The position numbers and the translations under genes were made by a program. The notes under the pieces were generated by a model, which had not been told where the DNA came from, ran no database searches, and was given only the letters and a program-made list of their open reading frames with translations. This document shows, piece after piece, positions 2,147 to 62,574 of a DNA stretch of 64,000 bases. The DNA is from Chiloscyllium plagiosum (lineage: Eukaryota), in contig NC_057719.1 of assembly GCF_004010195.1 (NCBI RefSeq), positions 46,609,533 through 46,673,532 on the forward strand, given 5' to 3'. Position 1 is the first letter of the stretch, and the number at the start of each line of letters is the position of its first letter.

Positions 2147-2366
2147 GTGGGAGAACTTTCCCAATTTTGACATGTGTTCTCAGATATTAGCAAGAAGAAC
2201 TTTAAAAGGTCAATAGAAATGTATGTGCCTTTGCTGTTTCTGGTGACTTGGTCAATGCCATTTGAGCCATTCAGTTTCATTCCTTTTACCAGAGTTTGTA
2301 CTAGTTAGAAACAACTGAGTGATTTGCTATTGTCAGTAAATATTCAATTTTTTTTTTCCCCTACAG

Positions 2367-2420
2367 GCTCCAGTGATGATTCATCCAAGGCTGGCTTATT
2401 TGCTCTTTGCACATTGGATG
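2367..2420 (+). CDS. ITFG2: Internal 54-bp coding exon of KICSTOR subunit ITFG2 (phase 1 to phase 1)
   Basis: Strong acceptor (T-run CCCCTACAG|) and donor (|GTAAGG). It translates as (G)SSDDSSKAGLFALCTLD(G), matching in length and motif the human ITFG2 segment GHGTESSGSGLFALCTLDG, recalled from memory rather than searched. Confidence 0.85.
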
Positions 2421-2589
2421 GTAAGGACTTGTAATTATTTCTAGTTTGGCATAACAATAAAGTCTAGAGATTTTATTTTCTTTCCAACATGTTTTTCAAA
2501 CCAGCAAGGTCAATCATTACCTTTTCTCACTGTCATCATTTCTAAGATAGTGCATTATTCCACAATGAATGGTTATCCACATTATATTC

Positions 2590-3942
2590 ACGGTTTAAGA
2601 ATGGTGGTAAGGACAAGCCAGGGAGCTATAGACCAATGAGCCTGATGGTGGTGGGCAGGTTGTTGGAGGGAATGCTGTACATGTATTTGGAAAGGCAAGG
2701 GCTGTTAGGGATAGTCAACATGGCTTTGTGTGTAGAAAGTGATGTCTCACAAACTTAATTGAGTTTTTTGACAATGTAACAAAGGATTGATGAGGGCACA
2801 GCTGTAGATGTGATCTATGCGGGCTTCAGTAACGCGTTCAACAAGGTTCCCTATGGGAGACTGGTGAACAAGGTTAGATCTCAAGGAATACAGGGAGAAC
2901 TAGCCATTTGGATACAAAGGTAGAAGACAGAGGGTGGTGGTGGAGGGTTTTTTTTCAGACTGGAGACCTGTGACCAGCGGAGTGCCATAAGCATCAGTGC
3001 TAGGTACACTACTTTTTGTCATTTATATAAATGATTTAGATGTGAGCATAAACAGCATAGTTCGTAAGTTTGCAGATGACATCAAAATTGGAGGTGCAGT
3101 GGATAGTGAAGATTATAATGGGATCTTGATCGGATGGGCCAAAGGGTTGAGAAGAGGCGGGTGGAGGTTAATTCGGATAAATATGAGGTACTGCATTTTG
3201 GGAAAGCAAATCTTAACAGGACTTGCACACTTAATGGTAAGCTCCTAGGGGGTGTTGCTGGACAAAGAGACCTTGGAGTGCAGGTTCATAGCTCCTTGAA
3301 AGTGGAGTTGCAGGTAGATAGAATAGTGAAGGTGTTTGGTATGCTTTCGCTTATTGGTCAGAGTATAGAGTACAAGAGTTGGGAGGCCATGTTGCGGCTG
3401 TACAGGATATTGGTTAGGCCATTATTGGAATATTGTATGCAATTCTGATCTTCCTATCAGAAAGATGTTGTGAAACTTGAAAATGTTCAGAAAAAATTTA
3501 TAAGGACGTTGCCAGGGTTGGAGGACTTGAGCTATGGGGTGACGTTGAACAGGCTAGGGCTGTTTTCCTTAGAGCATCGGAGGCTGAGGGGTGACCTTTG
3601 TAGAGGTTTGTGAAATCATGTTGGGTATGGATAGGATAAATAGACAAAGTCTTTTCCCTGGGTTGGGGAAGCCAGAACTAGAGGGCATAGGTTTAGGTTG
3701 AAAGGGGAAAAATATAAGAGACCTAAAGGGCAACTTTTTCACGCAGAGGGTGGTACATGTATGGAATGAGCTGCCAGAGGAAGTGGTGGAGGCTAGCACA
3801 ATTGCAACATTTTAGAGGCATCTGGATGGGTATCTGAATAGGAAGAGTTTGGAGGGATATGGGCTGGGTGCTGGCAGGGGGGACTAGATTGGGTTGGGAT
3901 ATTGGTCAGCATGGGTCTGTTTCCATGCTGTACATCTATGAC
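2590..3942 (+). mobile_element. CR1 LINE, 5'-truncated (RT to 3' end), degenerate
   Basis: ORF fragments [20 protein letters not shown] and LYRILVRPLLEYC. The 3' UTR ends in CTGTTTCCATGCTGTACATCTATGAC, directly abutting the minisatellite. Confidence 0.9.
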
Positions 3943-6900
3943 GGAAGCAGTCCCGGAGTAGCAGCCGGCACGGGGAAGCAGTCCCAGAGTAGCAGCCGGC
4001 ACGGGGAAGCAGTCCTGGAGTAGCAGCTGGGACGAGGAAGCAGTCCCAGAGTATCAGCCGGGACGGGGAAGCAGTCCCGGAATAGCAGCCAACATTGGGA
4101 AGCAGTCCCAGAGTAGCAGCCGGCACGGGGAAGCAGTCCCGGAGTAGCAGCCGGCACGGGGAAGCAGTCCCGGAGTAGCAGCCGATACAAGGAAGCAGTC
4201 CCAGAGTAGCAGCCGACACAAGGAAGCAGTCCCGGAGTAGCAGCCGATACAAGGAAGCAGTCCCAGAGTAGCAGCCGGGACGGGGAAGCAGTCCCAGAGT
4301 ATCAGCCGGGACGGGGAAGCAGTCCCGGAGTAGCAGCCGACACGAGGAAGCAGTCCCGGAGTAGCAGCTGATACGGGGAAGCTGTCCCGGAGTATCAGCC
4401 GATACGGGGAAGCAGACCCGGAGTATCAGCCGATACAAGGAAGCAGTCCCGGAGTAGCAGCCGACACGGGGAAGCAGTCCCAGAGTAGCAGCCGGGAGGA
4501 GGAAGCAGTCCCGGAATAGCAGCCAACATTGGGAAGCAGTCCCAGAGTAGCAGCCGGCACGGGGAAGCAGTCCCGGAGTAGCAGCCGGCACGGTGAAGCA
4601 GTCCCGGAGTAGCAGCCGACACAGGGAAGCAGTCCCGGAGTAGCAGCCGACACGGTGAAGCAGTCCCGGAGTAGCAGCCGATACAGGGAAGCAGTCCCGG
4701 AGTAGCAGCTGGGACGAGGAAGCAGTCCCGGAGTAGCAGCCGATACGGGGAAGCAGTCCCGGAGTCGCAGTTGGGACGAGGAAGCAGTCCCGGAGTAGTA
4801 GCCGACACAAGGAAGCAGTCCCGGAGTAGCAGCCGGGAGGAGGAAGCAGTCCCGGAATAGCAGCCAACATTGGGAAGCAGTCCCAGAGTAGCAGCCGGCA
4901 CGGGGAAGCAGTCCCGGAGTAGCAGCTGGGACGAGGAAGCAGTCCCGGAATAGCAGCCAACATTGGGAAGCAGTCCCGCAGTAGCAGCCGATACAAGGAA
5001 GCAGTCCCAGAGTAGCAGCCGGGAGGAGGAAGCAGTCCCGGAATAGCAGCCAACATTGGGAAGCAGTCCCGGAGTAGCAGCCAGCACGGGGAAGCAGTCC
5101 CGGAGTAGCAGCTGGGACGAGGAAGCAGTCCCGGAATAGCAGCCAACATTGGGAAGCAGTCCCAGAGTAGCAGCCGATACGGGGAAGCAGTCCCGGAGTA
5201 GCAGCCATTACAGGGCAGCAGTCCCGGAGTAGCAGCCGGGACGAGGGAAGCAGTCCCGGAGTAGCGGCCGACACAGGGAAACAGTCCCGGAGTAGCAGCC
5301 GATACGGGGAAGCAGTATTGGAGAAGCGGACGGCACGGGGAAGCAGTCCCGGAGTAGCAGCCGACATGGGGAAGCAGTCCCGGAGTAGCAGCCGATACGG
5401 GGAAGCAGTCACGGAGTAGCAGCTGGGACGAGGAAGCAGTCCCGGAGTAGCAGCCGATACGGGGAAGCAGTTCCGGAGTAGCAGCTGGGACGAGGAAGCA
5501 GTCCCGGAGTAGTAGCCGACACAGGGAAGCAGTCCCGGAGTAGCAGCCGACACAGGGAAGGAGTCCCAGAGTAGCAGCTGACACGGTGAAGCAGTCCCGG
5601 AGTAGCAGCCGACACAGGGAAGCAGTCCCGGAGTAGCAGCTGACACGGTGAAGCAGTCCCGGAGTAGCAGCCGATACGGGGAAGCAGTCCCGGAGTAGCA
5701 GCTGGGACGAGGAAGCAGTCCCGGAGTAGCAGCCGACACAGGGAAGGAGTCCCAGAGTGGCAGCCGACACGGGGAAGCAATCCCGGAGTAGCAGCTGGGA
5801 CGGGGAAGAAGTCCCGGAGTAGCAGCCGACACGGGGAAGCAGTCCCGGAGTAGCAGCCGACACAGGGAAGCAGTCCCGGAGTAGCAGCCGACACGGGGAA
5901 GCAGTCCCGGAGTAGCAGCCGATACCGGGAAGCAGTCCCGGAGTAGCAGCCGGGACGGGGAAGCAGTCCCGGAGTAGCAGCCGATACGGGGAAGCAGTCC
6001 CGGAGTAGCAGCAGATACGGGGAAGCAGTCCCGGAGTAGCAGCAGATACGGGGAAGCAGTCCCGGAGTAGAGCCGATACCCCGATACCGGGAAGCAGTCC
6101 CGGAGTAGCAGCCGATACCGGGAAGCAGTCCCGGAGTAGCAGCCGATACGGGGAAGCAGTCCCGGAGTAGCAGCAGATACGGGGAAGCAGTCCCGGAGTA
6201 GCAGCAGATACGGGGAAGCTGTCCCGGAGTAGCAGCCGACACGGGGAAGCAGTCCCAGAGTATCAGCCGATACGGGGAAGCTGTCCCGGAGTAGCAGCAG
6301 ATACGGGGAAGCAGTCCCAGAGTAGCAGCTGGGACGGGGAACAGACCCGGAGTAGCAGCTGGGACGGGGAACAGACCCAGAGTAGCAGCCGATACCATGA
6401 AGCAGTCCCGGAGTAGCAGCCGATACGGGGAAGCAGTCCCGGAGTAGCAGCCGATACGGGGAAGCAGTCCTGGAGTAGCAGCCGGGACGAGGGAAGCAAT
6501 CCCAGAGTAGCAGCCGACACGGGGAAGCAGTCCCGGAGTAGCAGCCGATACGGGGAAGCAGTCCCGGAGTAGCAGCCGATACGGGGAAGCAGTCACGGAG
6601 TAGCAGCCGACACGGGGAAGCTGTCCCGGAGTAGCAGCCGATACAGGGAAGCAGTCCCGGAGTAGTGGCCGACACGGGGAAACAGTCCCGGAGTAGCAGC
6701 CGACACATGGAAACAGTCCCGGAGTAGCAGCCGATACGGGGAAGCAGTCCTGGAGTAGCAGCCGGGACGAGGGAAGCAATCCCAGAGTAGCAGCCGACAT
6801 GGGGAAGCAGTCCCGGAGTAGCAGCCGACACGGGGAAGCAGTCCCGGAGTAGCAGCCGATACGGGGAAGCAGTCCCGGAGTAGCAGCCAGGACGAGGAAG

Positions 6901-9900
6901 CAGTCCCGGAGTAGCAGCCGATACGGGGAAGCAGTCCTGGAGTAGCAGCCGGGACGGGGAAGCAGTCCCAGAGTAGCAGCCGATATGCGGAAGCTGTCCC
7001 GGAGTAGCAGCCGACACGAGGAAGCAGTCCCGGAGTATCAGCCGACATGTGGAAGCAGTCTCGGAGTAGCAGCCGATACGGGGAAGCAGTCCCGGAGTAG
7101 CAGCCGGGACGAGGAAGCAGTCCCGGAGTAGCAGCCGATACGGGGAAGCTGTCCCGGAGTATCAGCCAACACAGGGAAGCAGTCCCGGAGTAGCAGCTGG
7201 GACGAGGGAAGCTGTCCCGGAGTAGCAGCCGACACAGGGAAGCAGTCCCGGAGTAGCAGCCGGGACGAGGGAAGCAGTCCCGGAGTAGCAGCCGATACGG
7301 GGAAGCAGTCCCGGAGTAGTGGCCGACACAGGGAAACAGTCCTGGAGTAGCAGCCGATACGGGGAAGCAGTCCCGGAGTAGCAGCCGACACAGGGAAGCA
7401 GTCCCGGAGTATCAGCCGGGACGGGGAAGCAGTCCCGGAGTAGCAGCCGACACGGGGAAGCAGTCCCGAAGTAGCAGCCTACACGGGGACGCAGTCCGGG
7501 AGTAGCAGCTGGGATGGGTAGGCAGTCCCGGAGTATCAGCCGACACGAGGAAGCAGTCCCGGAGTAGCAGCCGATACGGGGAAGCTGTCCCGGAGTAGCA
7601 GCCGACATGAGGAAGCAGTCCCGGAGTATCAGCCGACATGTGGAAGCAGTCCCGGAGTAGCAGCCGATACGGGGAAGCAGTCCCGGAGTAGCAGCCGACA
7701 CGGGGAAGCAGTCCCGGAGTAGCAGCCGACACGGTGAAGCAGTCCCAGAGTATCAGCCGACACGGGGAAGCAGTCCCGGAGTATCAGCCGATACAGGGAA
7801 GCAGTCCCGGAGTAGCAGCCGACACGGGGAAGCAGTCCCAGAGTATCAGCCGACACGGTGAAGCAGTCCCGGAGTAGCAGCCGACACAGCGAAGCAGTCC
7901 CGGAGTAGCATCCGATACAGGGAAGCAGTCCCGGAGTAGCAGCCGACACGGGGAAGCAGTCCCAGAGTGTCAGCCGACACGGGGAAGCAGTCACGGAGTA
8001 GCAGCCGACACAGTGAAGCAGTCCCGGAGTAGCAGCCGACACGGGGAAGCAGTCCCGGAGTAGCAGCCGATACAGGAAAGCAGTCCCGGAGTAGCAGCTG
8101 GGACGAGGAAGCAGTCCCGGAGTAGCAGCCGATACGGGGAAGCAGTCCCGGAGTAGCAGTTGGGACAAGGATGCAGTCCCGGAGTAGTAGCCGACACAGG
8201 GAAGCAGTCCCGGAGTAGCGGCCGATATGGGGAAGCAGTCCCGGAGTAGCAGCCGATACGGGGAAGCAGTCGCGGAGTAGCAGCTGGGACGGGGAAGCAG
8301 TCCCGGAGTAGCAGCCGACACGGGGAAGCAGTCCCGGAGTATCAGCCAGTACGGGGAAGCAGTCCCGGAGTAGCAGCCGACACGGGGAAGCAGTCCCAGA
8401 GTAGCGACGGGCGCGGGGAAGCAGTCCCGCAGTAATGGCCGGTGTGGGGAAGCAGGCCCGGAGTAGCGGGGGGAGTGGGGAAGCCGGCACGGAGTAGCGG
8501 GCAGTGTGGGGAAGCAGAACCCAGAATAGCTGCCGGTGTAGGGAATGAGGCCCGGAGTAGCAGCCGGTGTGGGGAAGCAGTCCCGGAGTAGCGGCAGGTG
8601 TGGGGAAGCAGTCCCGGAGTAGCGGCGGGTGTGGGGAAGCACGCCTGGAGTAGCAGTGGGTGTGGGGAAGCAGGCGCGGAGTAGCGGCAGGTGTGGGGAA
8701 GCAGTCCCGGAGTAGCAGCGGGTGTGGGGATGCAGTCCCGGAGTAGCGGCGGGTGTGGGGAAGCACGCCTGGAGTAGCAGTGGGTGTGGGGAAGCAGGCG
8801 CGGAGTAGCGGGCGGTGTGGGGAAGCAGAACCCAGAGTAGCTGCCAGTGTAGGGAATGAGGACCGGAGTAGCAGCCGGGGTGGAGAAGCAGTCCAGGAGT
8901 AATGGCTGGTCTGGGGAACGGTCCTGGCGTAGCGGCCGGTGTGCGGAAGCAGACCCAGAGTAATGGTCGGTGTGGGGAATCAATCCCGGAGTAATGGTCG
9001 GTGTGGGGAATCAATCCCGGAGTAATGGTCAGTGCGGAGAAGAAATCCCGGAGTAATGGTCGGAGCGGGTAATCAATCCCGGAGTAATGGCCAGAGCAGG
9101 GAAGCAATCCCGGAGTAATGGCCGGTGTGGGGAATCAATCCCAGAGTAGTGGCCGGTGTGGGAAGCAGTCCCGGAGTAATGGCCTGTGTGGGGAAGCAGA
9201 CCCAGAGTAGCAGCCGGTGTGGGGAAGCAGGCCCGGAGTAACGGCAGGTGTGGGGAATCAATCCCAGAGTAGTGGCCGGTGTGGGAAGCAATCCCGGAAT
9301 AACGGCCGGTGTGGGGAAGCAGTCCCAGAGTAACGTCCAGTGTGGTGAAGCAGGCCCGGAGTAACGGCAGGTGTGGGGAAGCAGTCCTGGAGTAATGGCC
9401 AGTGTGGGGAAGCAGACCCGGAGTAGCAGCCGGTGTGGGGAAGCACACCTGGAGTAGCAGCCGGGACGGGGAAGCAGACCCGGAGGCAGACCCGGAGTAG
9501 CGGCCGGTGTGGGGAAGCAGACCGGAATAACGGCCGGTGTGGGGAAGAGGTCCCAGAGTAATGGCCAGTGTGGGGAAGCAGGCCCGGAGGAGTGGCCGCT
9601 GTGGGGAAGCAGATCCGGAGTAATGGCCGGTGTGGGGAAGCGGTCCCGGAGTAGCAGCCGACACGGGGAAGCAGTCCCAGAGTAGCGGCTGGTGTGTGGT
9701 AGCAGACTCGGAGTAGCGGCCGGTGTGCAGAACGGTCCCGGAGTAATTGTCGGTGTGGAAAATCAATCCCGGAGTAATGGCCGGTGCGGGGAAGCAATCC
9801 CGGAATAATTGCCGGTGTGGGGAATCAATCCCAGAGTAGCGGCCGGTGCGGGGAAGCAGTCCCGGAGTAATGGCCGCTGTGGGGAACAGTCCCGGAGTAG

Positions 9901-12900
9901 CAGCCGACACGGGGAACCAGTCCCGGAATAATGGCCGGTGTGGGGAATCAATCCCGGAGTAATGGCCGGTGTGGGGAAGTAGTCCCGGAGTAAAGGCCGG
10001 TCTGGGGAACAGTCCAGGAGTAATGGCCGGTGTGGGGAATCAATCCCGGAGTAATGGCCGGTGCGGGAGAGCAATCCCGGAGTAATGGCCGGTGTGGGGA
10101 ATCAATCCCGGAGTACTGGTCTGTGCGGGGAAGCAATCCCGGAGTAATGGCCGGTGTGGGGAACCAATCCCAGAGTAATGGCCAGTGTGGGGAACCAGTC
10201 CCGGAGTAACGGCCGGTGTGGGGAATCAATCCCAGAGTAATGGTCGGTGTGGGGAATCAATCCCGAAGTAATGGCCGGTGTGGGGAATCAATCCCGAAGT
10301 AATGGCCGGTGCGGGGAATCAATCCCGAAGTAATGGCCGGTGCGGGGAATCAATCCCGAAGTAATGGTTGGTGTGGGGAAGCAGACTCGGAGTAGCGGCC
10401 GGTGTGGGGAAGCAGTCCCGGAGTAACGGCCGGTGTGGGGAAGCAGACGCGGAGTAATGGCCGATGTGGGGAAGCAGTCCCGGAGTAATGGTCGGTGTGG
10501 AAAATCAATCCCGGAGTAATGGCCGGTGCGGGGAAGCAATCCCGGAGTAATTGCCGGTGTGGGGAATCAATCCCGGAGTAGCGGCCAGTGCGGGGAAGCA
10601 GTCCTGGAGTAACGGCCGGTGTGGGGTCGCAATCCCAGAGTAAGGCCGGTGTGTGGAACCAGTCCCGGAGTAGTGGCTGGCACAGGGAGGCAGCCCCAGA
10701 GTAGCAGCCGGCATGGTGAAGCAGTCCTGGAGTAATGGCAGATGAGGGGAAGCAGACTCGAAGTAATGGTCGGTGTGGGGAATCAATCCCAGAGTAATGG
10801 CCGGTGTGGGGAAGCAGTCCTGGAGTAATGGTCGGTGTGGAAAATCAATCCCGGAGTAATGGCCGGTGCGGGGAATCAGACCTGGAGTAAAGGCCGGTGT
10901 GGGGAAGCATTCCCGGAGTAAAGGCCGGTGTGAGGAAGCGGACCCGGAGTAATGTCCGGTGTGGGGAAGCTGTCCCGGAGTAATGTCCGGTGTGGGGAAG
11001 CTGTCCCAGAGTAATGGCCGGTGTGGGGAAGCTGTCCCGGAGTAATGTCCGGTGTGGGGAAGCTGTCCCAGAGTAATGGCCGGTGTGGGGAAGCAGACCT
11101 GGAGTAATGGCCGGTGTGGGGAAGCAGACCCGGAGTAATGGCCGGTGTGGGGAAGCAGACCCAGAGTAATGGCCGGTGTGGGGAAGCTGTCCCAGAGTAA
11201 CAGCCGGTGTGGGGAAGCAGACCCGGAGTAACGGCCGGTGTGGGGAAGCAGTCCCGGAGTAATGGCTGGTGAGGGGAAGCTGTCCCAGAGTAATGTCCGG
11301 TGTGGGGAAGCTGTCCCAGAGTAATGGCCGGTGTGGGGAAGCAGGCCCAGAGTAACAGCCCGTGTGGGGAAGCAGGCCCGGAGTAGCGGCCGGTGTGGGG
11401 AATGGTCCCGGAATAATGGCCGGTGTGGGGAACGGTCCCTGAGTAGTGGCCGGTATGGAGAAGCAGACCCGGAGTAGCGGCCGGTGTGGAGAAGCAGTCC
11501 TGGAGTAATGGTCGGTGTGGAAAATCAATCCTGGAGTAATGGCCGGTGCGGGGAAGCAATCCCGGAGTAATTGCTGATGTGGGGAATCAATCCTGGAGTA
11601 ATGGTCGGTGCGGGGAAGCAATCCCGGAGTAACGGCCGGTGTGGGGAAGCAGAGCTGGAGTAACGGCCGGTGTGGGGAAGCAGACCCAGAGTAATGGTCA
11701 ATGCGGGGAAGCAATCCCGGAGTAATGGCCTGTGTGGGGAAGCAGACCTGGAGTAAAGGCCGGCGTGGGGAAGCAGTCCCAGAGTTGCGGCCAGTGTGGG
11801 GTAGCAGTCCCAGAGTAACAGCCAATGTGGGGAAGCAGTCCCGGAGTAATGGTCGGTGTGGGGAAGCAGACCCGGAGTAATGGTCGGTGTGGAAAATCAA
11901 TCCCGGAGTAATGGCCGGTGCAGGGAAGCAATCGCGGAGTAATTGCCGGTGTGGGGAATCAATCCTGAAGTAATGGCCGGTGTGGGGAAGCAGTCCTGGA
12001 CTGGAGGCTGACATGGGGAAGCAATCCCAGAGTAACAGCCGGTGTGGGGAAGCAGTCCCGGAGTAGCCGCCGGCACGGGGAAGCAGACCCGGATTAGCAG
12101 CCGGCACAGGGAAGCAGTCCCAGAGTAGTAACTGACATGGGGAAGCAGTCCCAGAGGAGTAACGGCCTGGAGTAATGGCCGGTGTGGGGAAGCAGACCCG
12201 GAGTAGCGGCTGGTGTGGGGAAGCAGACCCGGAGTAATGTCCGGTGTGGGGTAGCAGACCCGGAGTAGCGGCTGGTGTGGGGAAGCAGACCCGGAGTAAT
12301 GTCCGGTGTGGGGTAGCAGACCCAGAGTAACGGCCGGTGTGGGGAAGCAGACCCGGAGTAACAGCCGGTGTGGGGAAGCAGACCCGGAGTAACAGCCGGT
12401 GTGGGGTAGCAGACCCAGAGTAATGGCCGGTGAGGGGAAACAGTCCTGGAGTAACGGCCGGTGTCAGGAAGCAGATCCAGAGTAATGGCCGGTGTGGGGA
12501 AGCAGACCCGGAGTAATGGCCGGTGTGGGGAGACAGTCTCGGAGTAATGGCCGGTGAGGGGAAGCATTCCCGGAGTAACGGCCGGTGTAGGGAAACAGTC
12601 CCGGAGTAACGGCCGGTGTGGGGAAGCAGACCCGGAGTAATGGCCGATGTGGGGAAACAGTCCCGGAGTAACGGCCGGTGTGGGGAAGCAGACCCGGAGT
12701 AATGGCCGGTGTGGGGAAGCAGTCCCGGAGTAATGGCCGGTGTGGGGAAGCAGTCCCGGAGTAATGGCCGGTGAGGGGAAGCATTCCCGGAGTAACGGCC
12801 GGTGTAGGGAAGCAGACCCGGAGTAATGGCCGGTGTGGGGAAACAGTCCCGGAGTAATGGCCGGTGAGGGGAAGCAGTCCCGGAGTAATGGCAGGTGTGG

Positions 12901-12966
12901 AGAAGCAGTCCCGGAGTAATGGCCGGTGTGGGGTAACAGTCCTGGAGTAATGGCTGGTGTGGGGAG
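3943..12966. repeat. ~9 kb GC-rich minisatellite, ~31-bp unit (roughly 290 copies), two sub-arrays
   Basis: Left unit GGGGAAGCAGTCCCGGAGTAGCAGCCGAYAC (~3943-8400); right unit GGGGAAGCAGWCCCGGAGTAATGGCCGGTGT (~8400-12966). The long minus-strand ORFs are a by-product of the repeat. Confidence 0.98.
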
Positions 12967-13431
12967 CCTGTCCTGTGCAGGGTAGGCGCTGAGTGATACC
13001 CAAAACAAAGGCCATTATGAGGAGGGAGGTCAGAAAGGGCAAGCAGTCCTGTGGGAAACGTACCCAGGAGCAGCTGGGACTTGGTGCGGAGAGGACTGGA
13101 GGCTTGGGGCAGAGCTGGGATGGTTGTTAGACTGTGGTCTGGCGCAGACAGTGCTGAGCTCCCACAGTGTCATGTTTATGTGTAATTTATTTATCTGACA
13201 GTAATGTCCATCTTTTAACTATGTCTCATTTCCAACTTATTCTTTAAACACTGTAAAGTAATGCAACTAATTTTATTTTTTATTCCTCTTTTTGAGTCTA
13301 AGATTTGTTCCTATGCACTTGTACATAAGATTGAACCATAAAAGGCAGCATTGCAAAACTTTTCACCGTATTCCTGTACTTCTGTACTTGAGTACACATG
13401 ACAATAAAAGATATTCTAATTCTAATTCTAA
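12967..13431 (+). mobile_element. 3' body and Rex1-type tail of a non-autonomous retroelement continuous with the minisatellite
   Basis: Ends AAACTTTTCACCGTA..GAGTACACATGACAATAAAAG..(TTCTAA)3, the same terminal motif as the Rex1-like LINE (17150-17212) and the element at 36023-36866. Confidence 0.65.
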
Positions 13432-39099: not shown

Positions 39100-40800
39100 G
39101 ACATTTACACCCGGGGACTGGGATTTTTTCTGATTTGGACTCAGACACTGGCAATGTGTATTGGACTGTGGCTTGCATCTTGCGTCTGGAGGGTCTCAGA
39201 AAGTCTCCTCCTCTTCTTCTGGCAGTAATGGTTTTGAGGCTCCATCCATTTTGGACTCTGAGATTTCCTCGACACTAGACAGAGGGTGAGAATCTATGGT
39301 TTCTGCCAGGCCATCTGGCTGCTCTGAGAGACCAAGTATGTTTTGCTCCTGTCTTATTTGCCTGGTAACAGCTTTCAGGTGATCCACGTGTTTGCTCAGG
39401 ACTGTATCATCTACCTGAACTTTGTAAGTCATGGGATTTAACCTCGTCTTGTACCCATACAGGACCATTTCTATGGTTCCAACACCAATCTTTATCCCCT
39501 TTATTAAATTGTCTCTCCCATGTAGAGGAGGCATTTGGCTGGCACTGCTGTTCCTGCTGCCATTTCACCCTGCTCCCTCCTCCTCTAGGTCTGGGAAGAT
39601 CAGGTTTAACATGATGTGGAGTTTTCTCCCCATCAGTAACTCTGCTGGAGCTATCCCTTTAGTCACATGTGGGGTGGACCTATAATTGAACAGGAACCAG
39701 GACAGTTTGGTCTGAATTGACACTGTCGGCTGATACTTTAAGCCTGCCTCTTTCCGCTAGACCATTGAATGATGGATGGTATGGAACTGTCCAAACATTC
39801 CAAATGTCATTGGACTTTAGGAAATACTTGCATTCCCTGCTGGTAAATGACGTCCCATTTTCCGTGACCAATACCTCTGAGAGTTCGTGCATCATGAATG
39901 ATGCTCGCAGTTTCTCAATCGTTATCCCTGAGTTTCCTGAATGAACTTTATGCACATCCAACCACTTTGAATGAACAGGAACATTAAGCCCATGAAAGGA
40001 CTGGCACAATCAACATGCACTCCAGGGTTTACCCACAAATGTGTGATGCTGCTGGTAGCAACTTATGTCCTTATTGGCGCTCTGGGCACTGTTCCACCAA
40101 CACAGCCATGTCAGCATCCAACCCTGGCCACCAGACATAATTTCTTGCCAACATCTTCATCTTGGAAACCCATGGATGACCCTGGTAGAGTTCAGCCAAT
40201 ACCTGGCGGTGACCTTTATTTGGGACAACACCCCCCCCAACCTTGCTCCCCCCCCCCGCCTTGCTCCCTACAGTAATATGCAGTCCTTTACAGTGCACTG
40301 GTCTCACTAGGTCCTGAAAGGTTTAAATCGGGTTACAGTGGCCCTTCTGTTTGCCTCATTACCACCAACTGTTTTAGTTTTGGTGGATTCGACCAGAAGG
40401 TCTTGACAGCACCATCTTGTCTTCCTTCAGTAGCTCTAGAAGGGTGATATGATCTGTTCCCTTGATGGATTCCTGCCAATAACAGTACTGGTGAAACTTC
40501 CTCACACCAAGGGCGACTGCTAAGACTTCCTTCTCTACCTGGATATACTTGTGTTCGACATTAATCAAAGTCCAGGAAGCATACATTATCGGGCATTCCT
40601 CTCCATTGGGCCACCGGTGAGCCAACATAACCTTGATACATGCTGGGAGGCATTGCATGTCAGCACTACTTCTCACTTCGGGTCATAGTGGGCCAACACC
40701 TGAGATGATGACAGCTGTTTTCTCATTTCCCAAAAGGCTGCTTCCTGGCTACACGACCATTTCCAAGGCTAATCCTTTTTCAATAGCAGGGTAAGGGTAA
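39100..40800 (-). mobile_element. Gypsy pol relic (RNase H then integrase)
   Basis: PIMYASWTL..HKYIQVEKEVLAVALGVRKFHQY..TDH (RNase H); GHPWVSKMKMLARNYVWWPGLD (integrase zinc region); HSKWLDV..VTENGTSFTS..PYHPSFNGLAER (integrase core). Confidence 0.9.
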
Positions 40801-40985: not shown

Positions 40986-41765
40986 TTGATTTGATTTGAT
41001 TTATTGTAGTCATGTGTACCTAGGTACAGTGAAAAGCTTTGTTTGTGAGCAGTACAGGCAGACCAGAGTAAGCAAGGACATAGAGATCACAGGATGCTGA
41101 GACAGAGTGAGGCATACAGGTTTCATGACACAGAACACGCATGAGGCAAGAACAGCATTAACAAGATCAACATCATTTGGAGGTAGAGAGTCTATTTGCC
41201 AGTCTAACAACAGCAGCGAAGAAGTTGTTCTTGAACGTGTTGATGTGTGTTCAACCTTCTGTATTTTCTGCCTGATGGAAGAGGATGTTCCTGCAGCAAT
41301 GAGAGGTGTAAATGGAGTCCATGGGTAGGAGGTTGGTTTCCATAATGGATTAGGCTGTGCACACCTTCTTCTATAGTTTCTTACGGTCCTGGGCACAGCA
41401 GTTACCATACTAGGCTGTTATGTACCCAATCAGTATGGTGCACCTGTAAAGGTTGGTAAGGGTCCTTATGGATATGCCAAACTTCCTAAGCTGCCTGAGG
41501 AAGAAGAGAAATCAAAAAGTGTGGTGCTGGAAAAGCACAGTAGGTCAGGCAGCATCCGAAGAGCAAGAGAGTCGACGTATCGGGCATAAGCTCTTCATTT
41601 ACCTTATGTCTGAAACATTGCCTCTCCTGCTCCTTGGAGGCTGCCTGACCTGCTGTGCTTTTCAAGCACACACTTTTCGACTCTGACTTTCCTGCATCTG
41701 CAGTCCTCACTTTCTCCTAGTTGAAGAAGAAGAGGTATCATTGTGGCTTCTTGACCATTGCATCT
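40986..41765 (-). mobile_element. Rex1/Babar-like LINE 3' part
   Basis: Reverse-complement similarity to 16620-17212, with a (TCAAA)n tail. Confidence 0.85.
41509..41721. mobile_element. Penelope-derived head-to-head hairpin insert (family 1) with 13-bp TSD
   Basis: Inverted arms (GCTGGAAAAGCACAG..CAGGCAGCATCC / GGCTGCCTGACCTGCTGTGCTTTTC). TSD TGAGGAAGAAGAG (41496-41508) / TGAAGAAGAAGAG (41722-41734). Confidence 0.75.
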
Positions 41766-46425: not shown

Positions 46426-49329
46426 TGATATCACAGCAATTACAGAAACGTGGCTCAGATGGACAGTACTGGCAGCTTAATGTTTCAAGGTATAGATGCT
46501 AAAGGAAGAATAGAAAAAGGGGCAAGAGAGGAAGGGCAGTGGTGTTTTTGATTAGGGTTAACCTTACGGTTATACTTTGGATATTCCTGGGAATACGACC
46601 AGGAAAGTAATTTGGGAGGAACTGAAAATAAAAAGGGATGGTCACCTTATTGGGATTTTACTATAGACACCCCAATAAGTCAGTTGGAAGCTGAGAAACA
46701 AATTATAAGGACATCTCAGTTATCTGTAAGAATAATAGGGTGGTTAAGGTAGGGGATTTTAACTTTCCAAACATGGACTGGGATTGCCACAGTGTTAAAG
46801 GTTTAGATGGAGAGGAATTTCTTCAGTGTGTACAAGAAAGCTTTCTGATTCAGTATGTGAATGTACCTACTCAGGAAGGTGCAAAACCTGACCTACTCTT
46901 GGGAAATAAGGCAGGGCAGGTGACTGAGGTGTCAGTGGGAGAGCACCTTGGGGCCAGCGACCATAATTCTATTAGTTTTAAAATAGTGATGGGAAAGGAT
47001 AGACCAGATCTAAAAGTTGAAGTTCTAAATTGGAGGAAGGCCAAGAACTTTCAGAAGTTGATTGGGTGCAGATGTTCGCAGGTAAAGGGATGGTTGGAAA
47101 ATGAGAAGCCTTCATAAATGAGAGAACGAGAGCCCAGAAATAGTATGTTCTTGTTAGGGTGAAGGGAATGATAGGTGCAGGGAATGCTGGATGATGATAG
47201 AAATTGAGGTTTTGGTCAAGAAAAAGAAGGAAGCATATGTCAGGTATAGAGAGCAGAGAGTGAGTGAAGCCTTAGAAGGGTATAAAGGCAGTAGGAGTAT
47301 ACTTAAGAAGGAAATCAGGAAGGCAAAAAGGGGACATGAGATAGCTTTGGCAAGTAGGGTTACAGAGAATCCAAAGGCATTCTACAAATACATTAATCAG
47401 GGAGAGAATAGGGTCCCTTAAAGTTCAGTAAGGCAGCCTTTGTGGAACCACAGGAAATGGGGGGGATACTAAATGAGTATTTTGCATCAGTGTTTATTGT
47501 CAAAGAGGATATGGAAGATATAGAATGTAGGGAAATAAATGGCGACATCTTGAAAACTGTTGATGTTACAGAGGCGGAGATGCCGGACAGCTTAAAACGC
47601 ATAAAGGTGGATAAAGTCCCAGGACCTGATCAGGTGTACCCGAGAACTCTGTGGGAAACTAGGGGAGTGATTGCTGGGCCCCTTGCTAAGATATTTGTGT
47701 CATCAATAGCCACAGGTGAGGTGCCAGAACACTGGAGTTTGGCTAATGTGTTGCCAATATTTAGGAAAGGTGATAAGGAAAAGCCAGGGAACTGTAGACC
47801 ATGGAGCCTGACATTGGTGGGTGGATAATTTGTTGGAGGGAATCCTGAGGGACAGGATTTACATGTATTTGGAAAGGCAAGGACTGATTAGGGATAGTCA
47901 GCATGGCGTTATGCATGGGAAATCATGTCTGACTATCTTAAGTGATTTTTCTGAAGAAGTAACACAGAGGATTGATGAGGGCAGAGCAGTGGATGTGATC
48001 TATGTGGACTTTAGTAGGGTGTTCAACACGGTTCCTCATGGGAGACTGGTTACCAAGATTGGATCACATGGAATTCAGAACTAGCCATTTGGATACAGAA
48101 CTGGCTCAAAGGTAGAAGACAGAGGGTGGTGGAGGAGGGTTGTTTTTCAGACTGGAGGCCTGTGACCAGTGGAGTGCCACAAGGATCAGTGCTGGGTCCA
48201 CTACTTTTTATCATTTATATAAATGATTTGGACGTAAACATAGGAGGTATAGTTAGTAAGTTTGCAGATGACAATAAAATTAAGAGATGTAGTGGACAGT
48301 AAAGAAGGTTATCTTGAAGTACAATGGGATCTTGATCAGATGAGCCAATGGGCTGAGGGGTGGCAGGTGAAGTCTAATTTAGATAAATGTGTAGTGCTTT
48401 ATTTTGGAAAGGCAAATCAGGGCAAGACTTAGACACTTAATGGTAAGGGCCTGGAGAGTGTTGCTGAACAAAGAGACCTTAGATTGCAGGTTCATTGTTC
48501 TTTGAAAGTGGAGTCGAAGGTAGATGGGATAGTGTTGAAGACGGTGCTCAGTATGCTTTTCTCTCTTGGTAACTGCATTGAGTATCGGAGTTGGGAGTTT
48601 GTGTTGTGGCTGTACAGGACATTGGTTAGGCCACTGTTGGAACTGCATGCAATTCTGGTCTTCCTGTTATAGGAAGGATGTTGTGAAACTTGAAAGGGTT
48701 CAGAAAAGATTTACAAGGATGTTGCCAGGGTTGGAGAGTTTGAGCTACAGAGAGAGACTGAATAGGCTGGGGGTATTTTCCCTGGAGTGTCAGAGGTTGA
48801 GAGATGACCTTATAGAGGTTTATCAAATCAGGAGGGGCATGGACAGAGTAAATAGATAAGGTCTTTTCCCCGGGGTGGGGGAGTCCAAAACTAGAGGCCG
48901 TAGATTTAAGGTGAGAGAGTAAAGATTTAAAATGGACCCAAGAGGCAACATTTTCATGAAGAAGGTGGTGAGTGTATGGAATGAGCTGCCAGAGGAAGTG
49001 GTGAAAGCAGGTACAATTACAAGATTTAAAAGGCATCTGGATGGTTATATGAATAGAAAACGTTTAGATGGATATGGGCCAATTGCTGACAAATGGGACT
49101 AAATTTATTTCGGATATCTGGTCAGCATGAACGAGTTGGACCGAAGGGTCTGTTCTCATGCTGTACAACTCTATGACTCCAATTGAGATTGTACTCATGC
49201 TCTATACAAGGCATTAAGACATGTTTTCACCTGTACTCAAATCTCCTTATAATGAAGGCTAGTTAATCACTTGTCTTCCTAATTGCTTGCTGCACTTGAA
49301 TTATAACGTTGAATGATTCATGGGGAGAA

Positions 49330-49638
49330 AATGGCCTGGTGTTGTTATCGCTGAGCTGTTCATCCAGAGACCTAGGTAATGTTCTGGGGTCCTGGGTTTA
49401 AAGATGGCAGATAGTGGAATTTGAATTTGATTTTAAAAAGTCTGGAATTAAGAGTTTAATGATAACTATGAATCCATAGTCACTTGTTGAGAAAACCATC
49501 TGGTTCCCCCTTAGGGAAGAATACTGCTGGTCTAGCCTAATGTGACTCCAGGCTCACAACAATGTGGTTGACTCTGAGGGATGGGCAATAAATGTTGGCC
49601 TAGCCAGTGATGCCCTGATCACATGGATGATTGAAAAA
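49330..49638 (+). mobile_element. SINE sharing its 3' tail with the LINE at 33520-33830
   Basis: Non-coding body ending GGGATGGGCAATAAATGTTGGCCTAGCCAGTGATGCC. Confidence 0.65.
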
Positions 49639-49941
49639 GATGAACCAGGACACTCAAATCCCTTTGGACAACCAAATTTTTCTGACAGAGATTTATGCGA
49701 TATTGCTCCCATAATTGATATCTAGATCTCAGAAAGACAGGAGGTTGGAATGAACATTTGCAGAAAAAAATATGAAGAAGGTCAAAAGAGAGAAGGAGGC
49801 ATAGAGAAAATATGCGAGGAAGTGAAATAACAAGATGTTGTAAAATCTATCAGGAATAGTACGATGATAGTAAAGAATGAATTAGATCAAGTACATTATG
49901 TCCTCTCCAATCCTGAAATCAGAATTTCAGAAACACCAACT

Positions 49942-50148
49942 GGATGTAGGTTTGCTCACTGAGCTGGAAGGTTCATTTTCAGACATTTTGTCACCATACT
50001 AGGTAACATTTTCTCTAGGCCTCCAGACGAAGGCTCACTGACGACGTTACCTAGTATGGTGATGGAATGTCTGAAAATGAACCTTCCAGCTCAGTGAGCA
50101 AACCTACATCCAGAACCTCAACCTGAGCTACAAATCTTCTCAAAACTC
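49942..50148. mobile_element. Penelope-derived hairpin insert (family 2) with 11-bp TSD
   Basis: ~68-bp inverted arms (49940-50007 / 50046-50113). TSD AAACACCAACT (49931-49941) / AAACACTAACT (50149-50159). Same sequence as the termini of the PLE at 57416-57993. Confidence 0.8.
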
Positions 50149-50172
50149 AAACACTAACTATACAGTCATTGA

Positions 50173-50282
50173 ACCAGGACCCTCATTCCTGAAGAAGGGC
50201 TTATGCCCGAAACGTCGATTCTCCTGCTCCTCGGATGCTGCCTGGTCTGCTGTGTTTTTCCAGCACCACATTTTTTAACACA
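50173..50282 (+). mobile_element. 110-bp Penelope-derived insert (family 1) with 14-bp TSD
   Basis: TATACAGTCATTGA at 50159-50172 and 50283-50296. Confidence 0.8.
50185..50220 (+). ncRNA. Minimal type I hammerhead ribozyme motif (intact core)
   Basis: ATTC-CTGAAGA-A-GGGC-TTAT-GCCC-GAAA-CGTC-GATT: CUGANGA box, 4-bp stem II, GAAA box, palindromic ACGT mini stem III and a GUC cleavage triplet. Confidence 0.75.
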
Positions 50283-50850
50283 TATACAGTCATTGAGTCA
50301 GAGAGCAGGGAAATAGACCCTTCAGTCCGACTCGTCCATGCTAACCAAGTTTCCCAAACTAAATTAATCCTACTTGTCTGCATTTGGCCCATATCCCTCT
50401 AAACGTTCCTATTCATATACTTGTCCAAAGGTCAAGTACTTTGTAACAGTACCCGCATCAACTACTGCCTCTGGCAGTTCATTCCATTTCCCCATCACCT
50501 TCTGTGTAAAAACGTTGTCCCTCAGGTCCCATTTAAATCTTTCTCCTTTCATCTTAAAACGAGTTTTGAACTCGCTTTGCTATTCACCTTATCCGTGCCC
50601 CTCATGGTGTTATAAATGTCTATGAGGTCACCCCTCAACCTCTTCTGCTCCAGTGCAAAATGTCCCAGTTTATCCAGCCTGCCCTCATAATTCTTACCCT
50701 CCAGTCCTGATGACAACCTTGTAAATATTTTGTGCACCCTCTCCAATTTAATAATATCCTTCCTCCTCCAGGGTGACCAGAACTGTACACAGTACTCTAA
50801 AAGTGGCCTCATCAACATCCTGTACAACCTCACATGACATTCCAACTTCT
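50283..50850 (-). mobile_element. CR1 3' end
   Basis: LYRMLMRPLLEYCVQFWSP..LERVHKIFTR..RLRGDLI. Confidence 0.9.
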
Positions 50851-50961
50851 AAATTGAAAGGAAACAGTGGTTGTCCGGAATTTGTTAAGCAGACTCACTG
50901 AGTCACCAGTCTGTTGAATGGCTACTGTTTGAAGGCATTAATTCTCTTTTCACTGTCTATG

Positions 50962-51151
50962 TTAAAAATCATACAACACCAGGTTATAGTCCAACAGGTT
51001 TCTTTGGAAGTACTAGCTTTCAGAGTGTTGCTCCTTCATCGGGTAGCTCTGAAAGCTAGTACTTTCAAGTAAACCTGTTGGACTATAACCTGGTGTTGTG
51101 TGATTTTTAGCTTTGTCCACTCCAGTCCAACATGGGCATCTCCACATCTTT
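50962..51151. mobile_element. Penelope-derived hairpin insert (family 4) with ~10-bp TSD
   Basis: ~60-bp inverted arms (50964-51025 / 51047-51108). TSD ACTGTCTATG / ACTGCCTATG. The minus strand has CCGATGA-A-GGAG..CTCT-GAAA-GCTA. Confidence 0.7.
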
Positions 51152-57415: not shown

Positions 57416-57993
57416 TGTAGTGAGTTTTGGGAAGATTTGTAGCACAGGTTGAGGTTCTGGATGTAAGTTTGCTTGCTGAGCTGGAAGGTTCATTTTCAGA
57501 TGTTTCATCACCATACTAGGTAGCATTATCAGTGAGCCTCCGGTGATCCACTTTCTGTTTGTGTTTAGGTTTCCTTGGGTTGGTGGTGTCATTTCCTTTG
57601 GTGATGCCATTTCCTATCTCTAGTATCCTTACATACAGATGAAGAAGGACTCCTCTTCGACTGGGACAACACATCCAACTTAGGACAAGCTAAAGAGAGA
57701 CACGCATTAGAATTCCTAGAAGCATGGTATTCCAACTGGAATTCTATCAACAAACACATTGACTTGAACCCCGTTTACCACCCTCTGGGAAAAATAACAG
57801 GAAATGACATCACCACAGGAAATGATATTACCACTGGAAATGACACCACCAATCCAAGGAAACCTAAACACATGAATAGAAGTGGGTCTTAATACCAGTG
57901 CTTCACCGGAGGCTCACGATGATGTTACCTAGTATGGTGACAAAACGTCTGAAAATGATCCTTCCAGCTCAGTGAGCAAACTTACATCCACAC
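57416..57993 (+). mobile_element. Penelope-like element 3' end with inverted pseudo-LTR (family 2), 7-bp TSD
   Basis: ~57655-57790 encodes FDWDNTSNLGQAKERHALEFLEAWYSNWNSINKHIDLNPVY (GIY-YIG C-terminus). 57416-57610 is an inverted copy of the 3' end. TATGATA lies at 57409-57415 and 57994-58000. Confidence 0.85.
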
Positions 57994-58795: not shown

Positions 58796-60877
58796 CTCAG
58801 AGTAAGAGTTTCGACATTTAGAATTAAGACAAAGTGAACCTCTTTTACAAAATTAAAAGGCTATGCTCCATGATTGGGACAGGGGGTTTCATAAATTATT
58901 GAGTGTAATAGGAGTTAAGAAATATTGGGTAAGTGCAGGAAGGTAGAAGTGAGGTAGGAAAGTAGAATTGAGGTGGATGGTCAGCCATGGTTTGACTGAA
59001 TGGTAGAATAGGCTTCAAGGGCTAATTAGTCTTGTTTGGGTCTTAGTTTACATGAATTGTGGGCCCACCAAAATATGTCAGAGGAAGTTAACTTCATTTA
59101 ATTATGCTCAACAAGTGCCCAGATTATAAGGGAGATATCTCAGGTGGGCATTAACTGCCTTGCATGGCAATGTTTAGGACATGTAGCAATTCCGAAAGGG
59201 CTCCATGGAAACGGAATTGTTTTAACAGAAAGTTGGGACCTCATTTGTCGCTCCCAACAGACTCCTGCAGAAATTACTCTGCGAGTGCACCGGAAACTTC
59301 TTGTCCCAGTATATTTGACCAAGCCTATGTAGAGGCAGTGTTGTGAAGTTTGTTGCTCTAGTCCCCCTGGTAACAGTCTTAACAGGGGCATAGCACATAA
59401 TTTTCATGTAAATACAGAAATCATCACTGCTTGATTAACAGTTCCCTTTTGAATTTGAGGAGCCAGTTTTCAAAATCCATGAGGTTCCAGCAAATCTTTT
59501 CTGATATATAAAAGCCGGTTTCTATCATTTTCGATATGAAACTTATTTAAAATCCCTGCAGGAGAAGGAATTCTGAAATCTTTAATAAAAGACAACAGGA
59601 GACATTTTGGAAAGAATGGACACATTGAAAATCCTGATGGCCATGAAAAAAAGTACATTCTTCACTTCGAGAGATTAGTTCATCATTGTCAGCATGTCAG
59701 AATTTTTTTCTCACCATGGAGAATCTCCCAGGACAGAGACCATCTTTGCTTTTTCATTAAATAGAAGTATGTTTACCAAAATGAAGTCAGAAGTCTTCTG
59801 CCTCAAGGAATGCCAAATTTTAAAAAGCAGGTAGCATCCAGGATGACTATAACATAGACAATGGTTTTCAGCTTAGCTTTTCAGTCAACTCACTCTAAGA
59901 GTATTTTAACGTGCCCTACCATTCTAGAAAAAATTCTGTTATTTTCTTGGTGATCTTAGAACTTAGATGATAACAGCATCATCTTATATAGGATGTTTAA
60001 CATGCTAAAATGCCCCAAGGCTCCTTACAGGAGTATTGCAAGTCAAAATATGTCACCAGGCCATATAAATACCTCAAAATACTTGCAAACTAGTTTGGTG
60101 CAGGCTTTGACAAGCATATTTGCAAACATTCATCGAAATCTCAATAAGAGCGTCGAGTTTAAGAAGCTGAGATTTATCTATAAGAGTGATGAAAGCTATG
60201 ACAGCTTTTACACTCCATGATCCCTTGGGGAGAGAGGGGGAGATGGTTGGGGTTGGGGGCGGGGTGGGGGGCGCGAGGGGAGTGCTAATTTACAGTCATA
60301 GACTCATGGAGTCATACTGCATGGAAACAGACCCTTCGGTCCAACCAGTCCATGCCGACCATGATCCCAAAATAAACTGGTCCCCCCCCACCTGTGCCTG
60401 GCCCATATCCATCCAAATATTTCTTAGTCATATACTTATCTAAATGTATTTTAAATGTTGTAACTGGACCCGCATTCATGACTTCCTCTGGAAGTTCATT
60501 CCACACACGAACCAGTTTCTGTGTAAACTAACTGCCCCTCATGTTCTTTTTAAATATTTCTCCTTCACCTTAAAAATGTGCCCCCCTCGTCTTGAAATTC
60601 CTCATTCTATGGAAAAAACACCAGCCATTCGCCTTATTTATACACCTCATGATTTTATAAAACCTTATACGGTCACCCTTCAGTCTCCCTCGCTCCCAGT
60701 GAAAAAGTACCAACCTATCCAGCTTCTCCCCATAACTCAAACCCTCCATTCCTGGCAAAATCCTGGTAAATCTCTTCTGAACCCTCTCCAGTTTAATAAT
60801 ATCCTTCCTATAACAGGGTGACCAGAAGGGTTTATGCCTGAAATGTCGACTCGCCAGATCCATCCTGATGAATGGCT

Positions 60878-61625
60878 TATAGAGTCATAGAAAACACCCA
60901 CAACCTACCCAACCTCTCCTTATAGCTCAACTCCTCCAACCCTGGCAACATCCTTGTAAATCTTTTCTGAACCCTTTCAAGATTTGGAACATACTTCCGA
61001 TAGGAAAGAGACCAAAATTGCATGCAATATTCCAAAGGTGGCCTAACCGATGACCTGTACAGCAGCAACATGACCTCCCAACTCCTATACTCAATACTCT
61101 GACTAATAAAGGAAAGCCTTCTTCACTATCCTATCTCCCTGCGACTCCACTTTTAAGGAGCTATGACCCTGCACTCCAGCAACACTCCCTAGGACCTTAC
61201 CATTAAGGGGATAAGCCCTGCTAAGATTTGCTTTCCCAAAATGCAACACCTCACATTTATCTAAACTAAACTCCATTTGCTACTTCTCAGCCCATTGGCC
61301 CATCTGATCAAGATCCGTTGTAATCAGAGGTAACCTTCTTCGCTGTCCACTACACCTCCAATTTTGGTGTCATCTGCAAACTTACTAACTATACCTCTTA
61401 TTCTCACATCCAAATCATTTATATAAATGATAAAAAGTAGTGGACCCAGCACTGATCCTTGTGGCAATCCACTGGTCACAGGCCTCCAGTCTGAAAAACA
61501 ACCCTCCAAAACCACCCTCTGTCTTCTACCTTTGAGCTAGTTCTGTATCCAAATGGCTAATTCTCCCTGTATTCCATGAGATCTAACCTTGCTAATCAGT
61601 CTCCGATGGGGAACCTCGTTGAATG
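60878..61625 (-). mobile_element. Nested CR1 fragment inside a Penelope-derived insert
   Basis: [34 protein letters not shown], with its own CTATGACTCTAT tail. Confidence 0.85.
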
Positions 61626-62388
61626 CCTGACTTGCTGAATCTCCTGCCCCTTGGATGCTGCCTGACCTGCTGTGCTCTTCCAGCATCATATTTTTCGACT
61701 CTGATCACCAGCATCTGCAATACTCACTTTCTCCTGACCAGAAATGGACACAGTACTCCAGAAAAGACCTCAGCAACATCCTGTACAACCTCAACATAAT
61801 GTTCCATGCCTATACTCAAACGTCTGAGCAATGAAGGCAAGTGTACTAAAAGCCTTCTCAATCACCTTGTTTATATGTGATGCAAACCTCAAAGAATTAT
61901 GTACCTGAACTTATTTTGTTCTACAATACTACCTAAGGCCTTACCTTTAATTGTATAAATCTTACTCTTTTTGTTTTATCAAAATGCAATACCTCGCATT
62001 TATCCAAATTAAACTCCATCTGCCACACTTCAGCCCAATGACCAATTGATCAAGATCTCTTTGTAATCTTAGGTAACCTTCTTCGTTGTCTACTATACAA
62101 CAAATTTTGGTGTCATCTGCAAACCTACTAGCCATGTGTTCTAAATTCTCATCTAAATCGTTTATATAAATTACAAACAAAAGAAAGCCCAGTCTTGATC
62201 CCTGTGGAACACTACTGGTCACAGGTCTCTGAAAAATAACCCTCCACCATTACTCACTGTCTCTTGTTGTTAAGCCAATTTTATATTCAATTGGCAAGTT
62301 CACCCTGAATCTCATGTGATTTAACTTTACTAATTAACGTACTATGTGGAACCTTGTCAAAGGTTTTACTGAAGTCCAAGTAAACAAC

Positions 62389-62574
62389 AGGAAAAATTGA
62401 CGTTTCGGGCAAAAGCCCTTCAACAGGAAATGGGCAGCCCTTACTGATGAAGGGCTTTTGCCCAAGACATTGATTTTTCCTGCTCCTCGGATGCTGTCTG
62501 GCCTGCTTTGCTTCTCCAGCACCACTCTAATCTTGACTCTGATCCCTAGCATCTGCAGTACCCACCTCCGTCTC
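62389..62574. mobile_element. Penelope-derived insert (family 1) with two head-to-head hammerhead-like motifs, 15-bp TSD
   Basis: GTCCAAGTAAACAAC at 62374-62388 and 62575-62589. Minus strand CTGTTGA-A-GGGC-TTTT-GCCC-GAAA-CGTC; plus strand CTGATGA-A-GGGC-TTTT-GCCC-AAGA. Confidence 0.8.

Follow-up and report, generated by a model that had tools for sequence, protein, structure and literature searches.

The hammerhead-bearing insertion and its surroundings

The window, i.e. the whole 64-kb stretch of DNA that was analysed, belongs to contig C10 of the assembly (G000:C10). It contains a 110 bp insertion with a perfect 14 bp target-site duplication (TSD), both of which had been predicted from the sequence and are real at the positions listed in Table 1. 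Once the insert is taken out, the restored empty site can be aligned along its full length (117-118 nt at 73-74% identity) to other LINE tails, which implies that the 14-mer is a true duplication; both TSD copies carry the decayed letters peculiar to the host LINE copy. The element-derived part of the insert is limited to 50181-50279. Within 464 kb, searched on both strands with up to two mismatches permitted, the 16-mer spanning the 5' junction has a sole other match, of 15 bases out of 16, at 49641-49656. It is likely that the 8 bp patch at this junction was copied during repair from this DNA, 529 bp upstream, the rival explanation being that five of the bases match the ACCAG found upstream in the family and are accompanied by a 3-base insert.

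Table 1. Coordinates of the insertion, the hammerhead motif and other features of the window
Feature	Position	Strand	Remarks
Orphan ITFG2 exon	2367..2420	+	Splice-site scan; Itfg2 positions 212-232, E 0.0045
Likely donor of 5' junction patch	49641..49656	+	
Second hammerhead-bearing repeat family, head-to-head pair	49931..50158		Core broken (GGAAUGUC)
10-bp TSD of second-family pair	49931-49940 and 50149-50158		9/10 identical
Left copy of 14-bp TSD	50159..50172		TATACAGTCATTGA
Insert between TSD copies, 110 bp	50173-50282	+	
8 non-element bases at 5' junction	50173..50180	+	Likely patch copied from 49644-49651 during repair
Pseudo-LTR (pLTR) fragment of GIY-YIG Penelope-like family	50181..50279	+	From 8 nt before core to inner 3' end, without tail
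Stem I 5' strand AUUC	50185..50188	+	
Core C3-U4-G5-A6-A7-G8-A9 plus extra base	50189..50196	+	Feature named in Cervera 2014
Hammerhead core CTGAAGA	50189-50195	+	Read from sequence
Extra A between core and stem II	50196	+	Read from sequence
Stem II GGGC-TTAT-GCCC	50197..50208	+	4 bp, 4-nt loop, G10.1-C11.1
G12-A13-A14-A15.1 (GAAA)	50209-50212	+	Read from sequence
ACGU palindrome replacing stem III	50212-50215	+	Suits dimer; dimer modelled
CGTC, predicted cut after C17 (50216)	50213-50216	+	Sequence; U6 joints at matching bond in sister copies
Stem I 3' strand GAUU	50217..50220	+	Two pairs, U.U mismatch, one pair
3 additional bases ahead of right TSD	50280..50282	+	
Right copy of 14-bp TSD	50283..50296		TATACAGTCATTGA
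Decayed LINE 3' tail, insertion target	50297..50400	-	Identified by alignment of empty site to other LINE tails
LINE frame	50552-50848	-	

The left TSD copy, starting at 50159, directly abuts the TSD of a head-to-head pair of a second hammerhead-bearing family, which ends at 50158, with no bases between them. This second family is also found at 57421-57542 and 57907-57990, again head to head and with broken cores. A heterodimer of the 50189 motif with the adjacent second-family ribozyme is ruled out by the broken GAAA and the non-pairing stem I ends of the latter. Decayed copies of the insert's own family, together with another inverted repeat of 63 bp, are found at 1887-2150, 41510-41714, 50963-51109, 60824-60861, 61590-61737 and 62395-62574, while decayed frames at 39200-40700 bear a likeness to what we take to be LTR-retrotransposon pol.

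The letters and positions of the hammerhead motif (50189-50216) could be confirmed from the sequence. All core features of the minimal hammerheads of Penelope-like elements (CUGANGA, GAAA and NUH) are present, as are G10.1-C11.1 and the extra base preceding stem II; among 28 aligned motifs this base pair is G-C in 21 and G-U in 7. A descriptor search of the kind originally proposed, using the strict pattern of core, stem II and GAAACGTH, finds 30 instances in a 652 kb sample, against none in each of ten dinucleotide-matched simulations. This sample consists of the window, 400 kb of its flanks, 16 spaced 10 kb pieces and the ITFG2 locus, and was not picked for this family. The looser pattern CTGANGA..GAAA is not enriched in the window (11 instances, against 6.8 ± 2.5), and the core at 50189 is the only intact one within these 64 kb. 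The Rfam hammerhead models, the other search originally proposed, give no match either at the gathering score over the whole window or at E ≤ 10 over 49900-50600. This is to be expected, as the motif has no stem III; by the standard of the curated Rfam model, which includes that stem, it is not a canonical hammerhead. The Rfam miRNA matches near the insert correspond to a neighbouring inverted repeat.

The parent family

The 28 nt hammerhead core occurs in 33,157 exact copies genome-wide, and the 39 nt ribozyme including both strands of stem I in 10,305, with none for reversed control patterns. The motif at 50189 is hence one among 33,157 identical cores and not distinctive. The closest copies of 50181-50279 are 98% identical to it; relative to the majority of the 29 nearest copies the window copy has a single difference and retains four CpG dinucleotides, implying that it is young.

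Longer copies of the family extend upstream into a GIY-YIG frame and then a reverse transcriptase (RT) frame. The RVT_1 matches in these parent elements have E values of 2e-8 and 8e-7, with that in L152 above the cut-off; the GIY-YIG match (E = 0.008) is under the Pfam cut-off, with the motif itself visible. In L149 the window sequence forms both pLTRs, 3,425 bp apart, and the same 459 bp repeat is found at both ends of an RT frame. The original attribution of the motif to the minimal type I hammerheads of Penelope-like elements is thus borne out by its location in the pLTR and by the order of RT and C-terminal GIY-YIG in the parent. A cysteine linker, C-x4-C-x2-C, precedes GIY-YIG in L151, L152, L156 and L157; a linker of the form CX2-5CxxC is a feature of Neptune and Nematis elements (Craig et al. 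2021, PMC8557442). Placed by such motifs, the parent fits a Neptune/Nematis-type EN+ Penelope-like element. No uninterrupted ORF was found among the 14 long copies of the family examined. An outcome that had been named as contrary to the prediction, a family consensus lacking CUGANGA, GAAA and stem II pairing, was not observed: both core and stem II are conserved.

Several rearranged members of the family were also encountered. In L153 (3089-6424), L160 and L161 a short unit has expanded in tandem within the Penelope ORF, leaving more than 1,100 codons open in L153. Five loci (L005 and L035-L038) represent a rearranged subfamily with pieces of the tail and of the ORF start upstream of the pLTR. 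Two intact hammerhead cores lie in direct tandem, 33 bp apart, at L128:2735-2817, a candidate for a natural dimer.

How the copies are built

The 652 kb sample contains 127 copies of the family, 21 of which have a strictly intact core. The ends of these copies, being taken from local alignments, are blurred by a few bases. Measured from C3, 5' ends fall at -61 or beyond in 25 copies, -60 to -26 in 5, -25 to -11 in 10, -10 to +4 in 50, +5 to +19 in 21, +20 to +35 in 9 and later in 7, such that the interval from -25 to +19 holds 81 of the 127. An accumulation of genomic 5' ends at the cut site is ruled out, as a single copy begins at +28, the first base past the cut. The 3' ends are bimodal, lying either near +75 to +100 or from +113 to the end of the model, and the window copy spans -8 to +90. 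Partial tandems, inverted 5' copies and one-sided tails are all present in the family; 44 of the 127 copies form 22 head-to-head pairs, usually with one arm tailed and the other tailless. TSDs measure approximately 9-17 bp where found, and among solo short copies, exact duplications of at least 9 bp were found in just 7 out of 45 and 6 out of 25.

The insertion could have arisen as follows. The GIY-YIG nuclease of an element would have made a staggered cut in the old LINE tail, giving rise to the 14 bp TSD. Of the two internal start sites, reverse transcription would have used the inner one, about 90 nt past C3, on uncut RNA; it would have passed through the hammerhead and halted 8 nt short of the core, where the majority of copies end. 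Joining of the 5' end would then have involved the 8 bases copied from the DNA 529 bp upstream.

The chief alternative concerns this last stop. Rather than a 3'-end copy truncated at its 5' end, the insert could represent the capped front end of the RNA, copied in full as a 'strong-stop' product, which is quite possible, if short of probable. It would account for the 50 copies of 127 that begin between -10 and +4, and for the letter preceding the A at -4. At 99 sites this letter is C in 72, T in 12 (11 of them templated by the pLTR), G in 11 and A in 4, and among the 16 junctions beyond the end of pLTR homology that have a letter other than C here, 11 have G. However, the window copy extends four bases past the A at -4 and lacks a G there, and a clustering of ends at this point would also be expected from stalling or fold-back at stem II. 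The choice between a strong-stop copy and a truncated one alters the origin of this copy but not its identity.

U6 joints in sister copies

At six other loci of the family (L194, L211 and L218-L221), U6 is joined exactly to base 1.1, i.e. at the predicted cut. Of 48 U6 loci listed, 30 were examined, two of which show this joint; two further U6 loci join elsewhere in the element, one identified by profile and one by eye. A genome-wide pattern permitting joints across 31 positions places all four of its hits at base 1.1, and one for U6 joints before the core has no hits. The six loci have differing flanks and represent differing subfamilies, with candidate TSDs of 8-13 bp at three of them, and all six have U at 1.3, as does the window copy. 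This implies that a weak stem I is no bar to cleavage. Ends with a 5'-OH are ligated to U6 by RtcB (Moldovan et al. 2019, PMC6789731), and the position of the joints thus suggests that the ribozyme of this family is likely to cut in the germ line.

These junctions resemble the U6/LINE-1 chimeras described in the same work, in which the 3' end of U6 is joined to retroelement RNA with a 5'-OH and the product retrotransposed, with the difference that here the joint lies at the predicted cut of a ribozyme, in sister copies rather than at the 50189 locus itself. No U6-Penelope hammerhead chimera was found in print by a literature search that was narrow and so does not show absence. Among the 30 U6 loci, 11 (L192, L199, L200, L204, L209 and L212-L217) pass into a SINE-like repeat at its head, as judged by eye, and L195 continues into tRNA-like sequence.

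Predicted activity of the window copy

In folding, stem II of the window copy has pair probabilities of 0.94-1.0, whereas stem I, with two base pairs, a U.U mismatch and one further pair, does not exceed 0.055 in the monomer. The folding of the insert as a whole is unremarkable (z = 0.09). Stem I does covary: among the 28 aligned motifs both sides change in three of its four pairs, a figure inflated by related rows, and the covariation score of 0.368, drawn from two or three families, exceeds that of every one of 500 shuffles and of every slid control. That the ACGU palindrome in a fresh insertion would suit dimers, as originally proposed, is also borne out, and in the modelled dimers the active form with one site (-14.7 kcal/mol, core energy not counted) compares with an inactive form at -24.1 kcal/mol, the latter being 9 kcal/mol more stable. 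The nearest intact cores on the same strand lie at -10975 and 102784, 61 kb and 53 kb away respectively, and there is no tandem partner. Published minimal hammerhead monomers show no detectable cleavage, and dimers low cleavage (Cervera and De la Peña 2014, PMC4209133). Given the absence of a partner, the weak stem I and the failure of such monomers to cleave alone, the lone window copy is likely to be silent, a predicted ribozyme. The claim that it is the best candidate for an active ribozyme in the window thus stands insofar as its core is the only intact one there, but does not extend to activity of the lone copy.

For RNA evidence, a portion of a poly(A) single-cell run amounting to about 2% was placed on 49300-51100; no reads were placed from a second run. 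The reads fall mainly on repeats, with a fraction of 0.92 running on into other loci. In this same portion of the run, read depth was zero in the bins of the single-copy upstream flank (49666-49909), and no pile-up of read ends was seen within 49300-51100. RNA of the family is present among the poly(A) reads. Also in view of the six U6 joints, the stability predicted for the active dimer and the tens of thousands of cores that could conceivably supply a partner RNA, it might be argued that the copy is transcribed as part of a different RNA that escaped detection, and that low-level cleavage takes place in trans or with the aid of an element protein. This is unlikely, since the inactive dimer is the stabler one, the upstream flank has no reads and no host exon was found: none of 334 frames from the window and locus (34 + 150 + 150) gave a match above the Pfam cut-off, nor did any of 193 out of 220 splice-defined candidate exons within 200 kb on each side, a search in which short exons can be missed.

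The ITFG2 exon

The insert had been described as sense to a host pre-mRNA and situated within an intron of ITFG2. The exon on which this rested is real and single-copy, shares its strand with the hammerhead and lies 47.8 kb upstream of it, but the gene continues on a different contig, C19, which carries all six of the Itfg2 family matches. Searching with the six C19 stretches of Itfg2 by tblastn finds nothing in the window; the window exon, being a different and short one, was detected only by the splice-site scan. Conversely, 80 kb of the C19 ITFG2 locus do not contain it; there, a gap of 5,379 N (G000:C19:26122689-26128067) separates its preceding and following exons, and its splice phases fit the C19 exons on either side of this gap. 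The gap edges match the window at -3029 to -2844 (96% identity) and 3754-3942 (98%); other copies of the repeat at 3754-3942 are 82-87% identical. The orphan exon thus belongs to a piece of approximately 7 kb, from about -3029 to 3942, and 50189 is 46 kb outside it.

On C10, this piece interrupts a minisatellite that is missing at the C19 locus. The minisatellite is long and GC-rich, extends over 3943-13200 and -3632 to -3030, and has long open frames on its minus strand. The piece is probably either a contig misplaced in the assembly or a duplication into the minisatellite. In both cases ITFG2 continues on C19, where its neighbouring exons lie, and 50189 is not in an intron of this gene. An active intronic ribozyme cutting ITFG2 pre-mRNA, suggested by the intact core, the sole one in the window, and by a genuine exon upstream on the same strand, is hence very improbable, there also being no partner ribozyme nearby. 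Finally, a mere chance resemblance to the hammerhead pattern, with which the lack of an Rfam match and of enrichment of the loose pattern would be compatible, is refuted by the strict descriptor counts, the preservation of the core across families with different stems and the U6 joints at the exact bond.

Relation to known ribozymes and retroelements

The motif shares with the minimal hammerheads of Cervera and De la Peña (PMC4209133) a type I core without stem III, the palindromic 15.2-16.2, the extra base between 9 and 10.1, the G10.1-C11.1 pair, the location in pLTRs and the occurrence mostly as single truncated copies. It differs in having a stem II of 4 bp, as against 7-8 in Schistosoma, and a stem I of 2 bp, U.U and 1 bp, as against 4-5 bp. 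The 33,157 exact cores also contrast with about 2,000-9,000 motifs in the genomes of that study.

The Poseidon element of Anolis is cleaved only with the element protein, uncut RNA being the main template (Frangieh et al. 2024, PMC11167929). The family described here is similar in the position of the hammerhead at the border of pLTR and ORF, in uncut RNA as the main template, and in having two internal start sites and copies with and without tails; it is unlike Poseidon in its CX4CXXC linker, which is of the Neptune/Nematis type. Furthermore, that study found no RNA ends at the cut, whereas U6 chimeras mark the cut here. With Neptune and Nematis (PMC8557442) the family shares RT followed by a C-terminal GIY-YIG, the CX2-5CxxC linker, the DKG motif, partial tandems, inverted 5' copies and a tail of 30-40 bp at one end. 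The head-to-head and two-start architecture of its copies agrees with both Craig et al. (PMC8557442) and Frangieh et al. (PMC11167929). Non-LTR retrozymes (Li et al. 2026, 10.64898/2026.07.22.740005) are similar in being non-coding, related to pLTRs and flanked by a TSD, with a type I hammerhead, but consist of tandem units each with a ribozyme, while the insert consists of one pLTR fragment, derived from a coding element. With no tandem units, a single copy, and no other intact core on its strand within 53 kb to one side and 61 kb to the other, identity with a retrozyme was rejected.

Conclusions

The window copy is a known kind of element with a known kind of motif, a young, solitary pLTR fragment carrying a minimal hammerhead. 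With considerable confidence, the insert can be interpreted as a short pLTR-end copy of an abundant Penelope-like element with an intact minimal hammerhead, of a family whose RNA is likely to be cut only as a dimer or with the element protein, and as likely to be silent at this locus. The locus is of little weight in itself, since identical relics number in the tens of thousands and no gene was found to contain it. The ITFG2 exon in the window probably reflects a misplacement in the assembly, by which the annotation of this gene would be broken.

For the family as a whole, we lean slightly towards a scenario in which its RNA is cut in the germ line, the resulting 5'-OH ends are ligated to U6 and the products are reverse-transcribed into the genome. 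The short copies, of which there are several hundred thousand, would mostly be run-off products of the front end of uncut RNA, the window copy among them. If this is true, the cutting of the RNA of an animal Penelope element and the start of its transcript are both recorded in the genome; in the literature compared, neither is shown in vivo. The U6 joints at the exact bond provide a testable handle on cleavage by minimal Penelope hammerheads in living animals.
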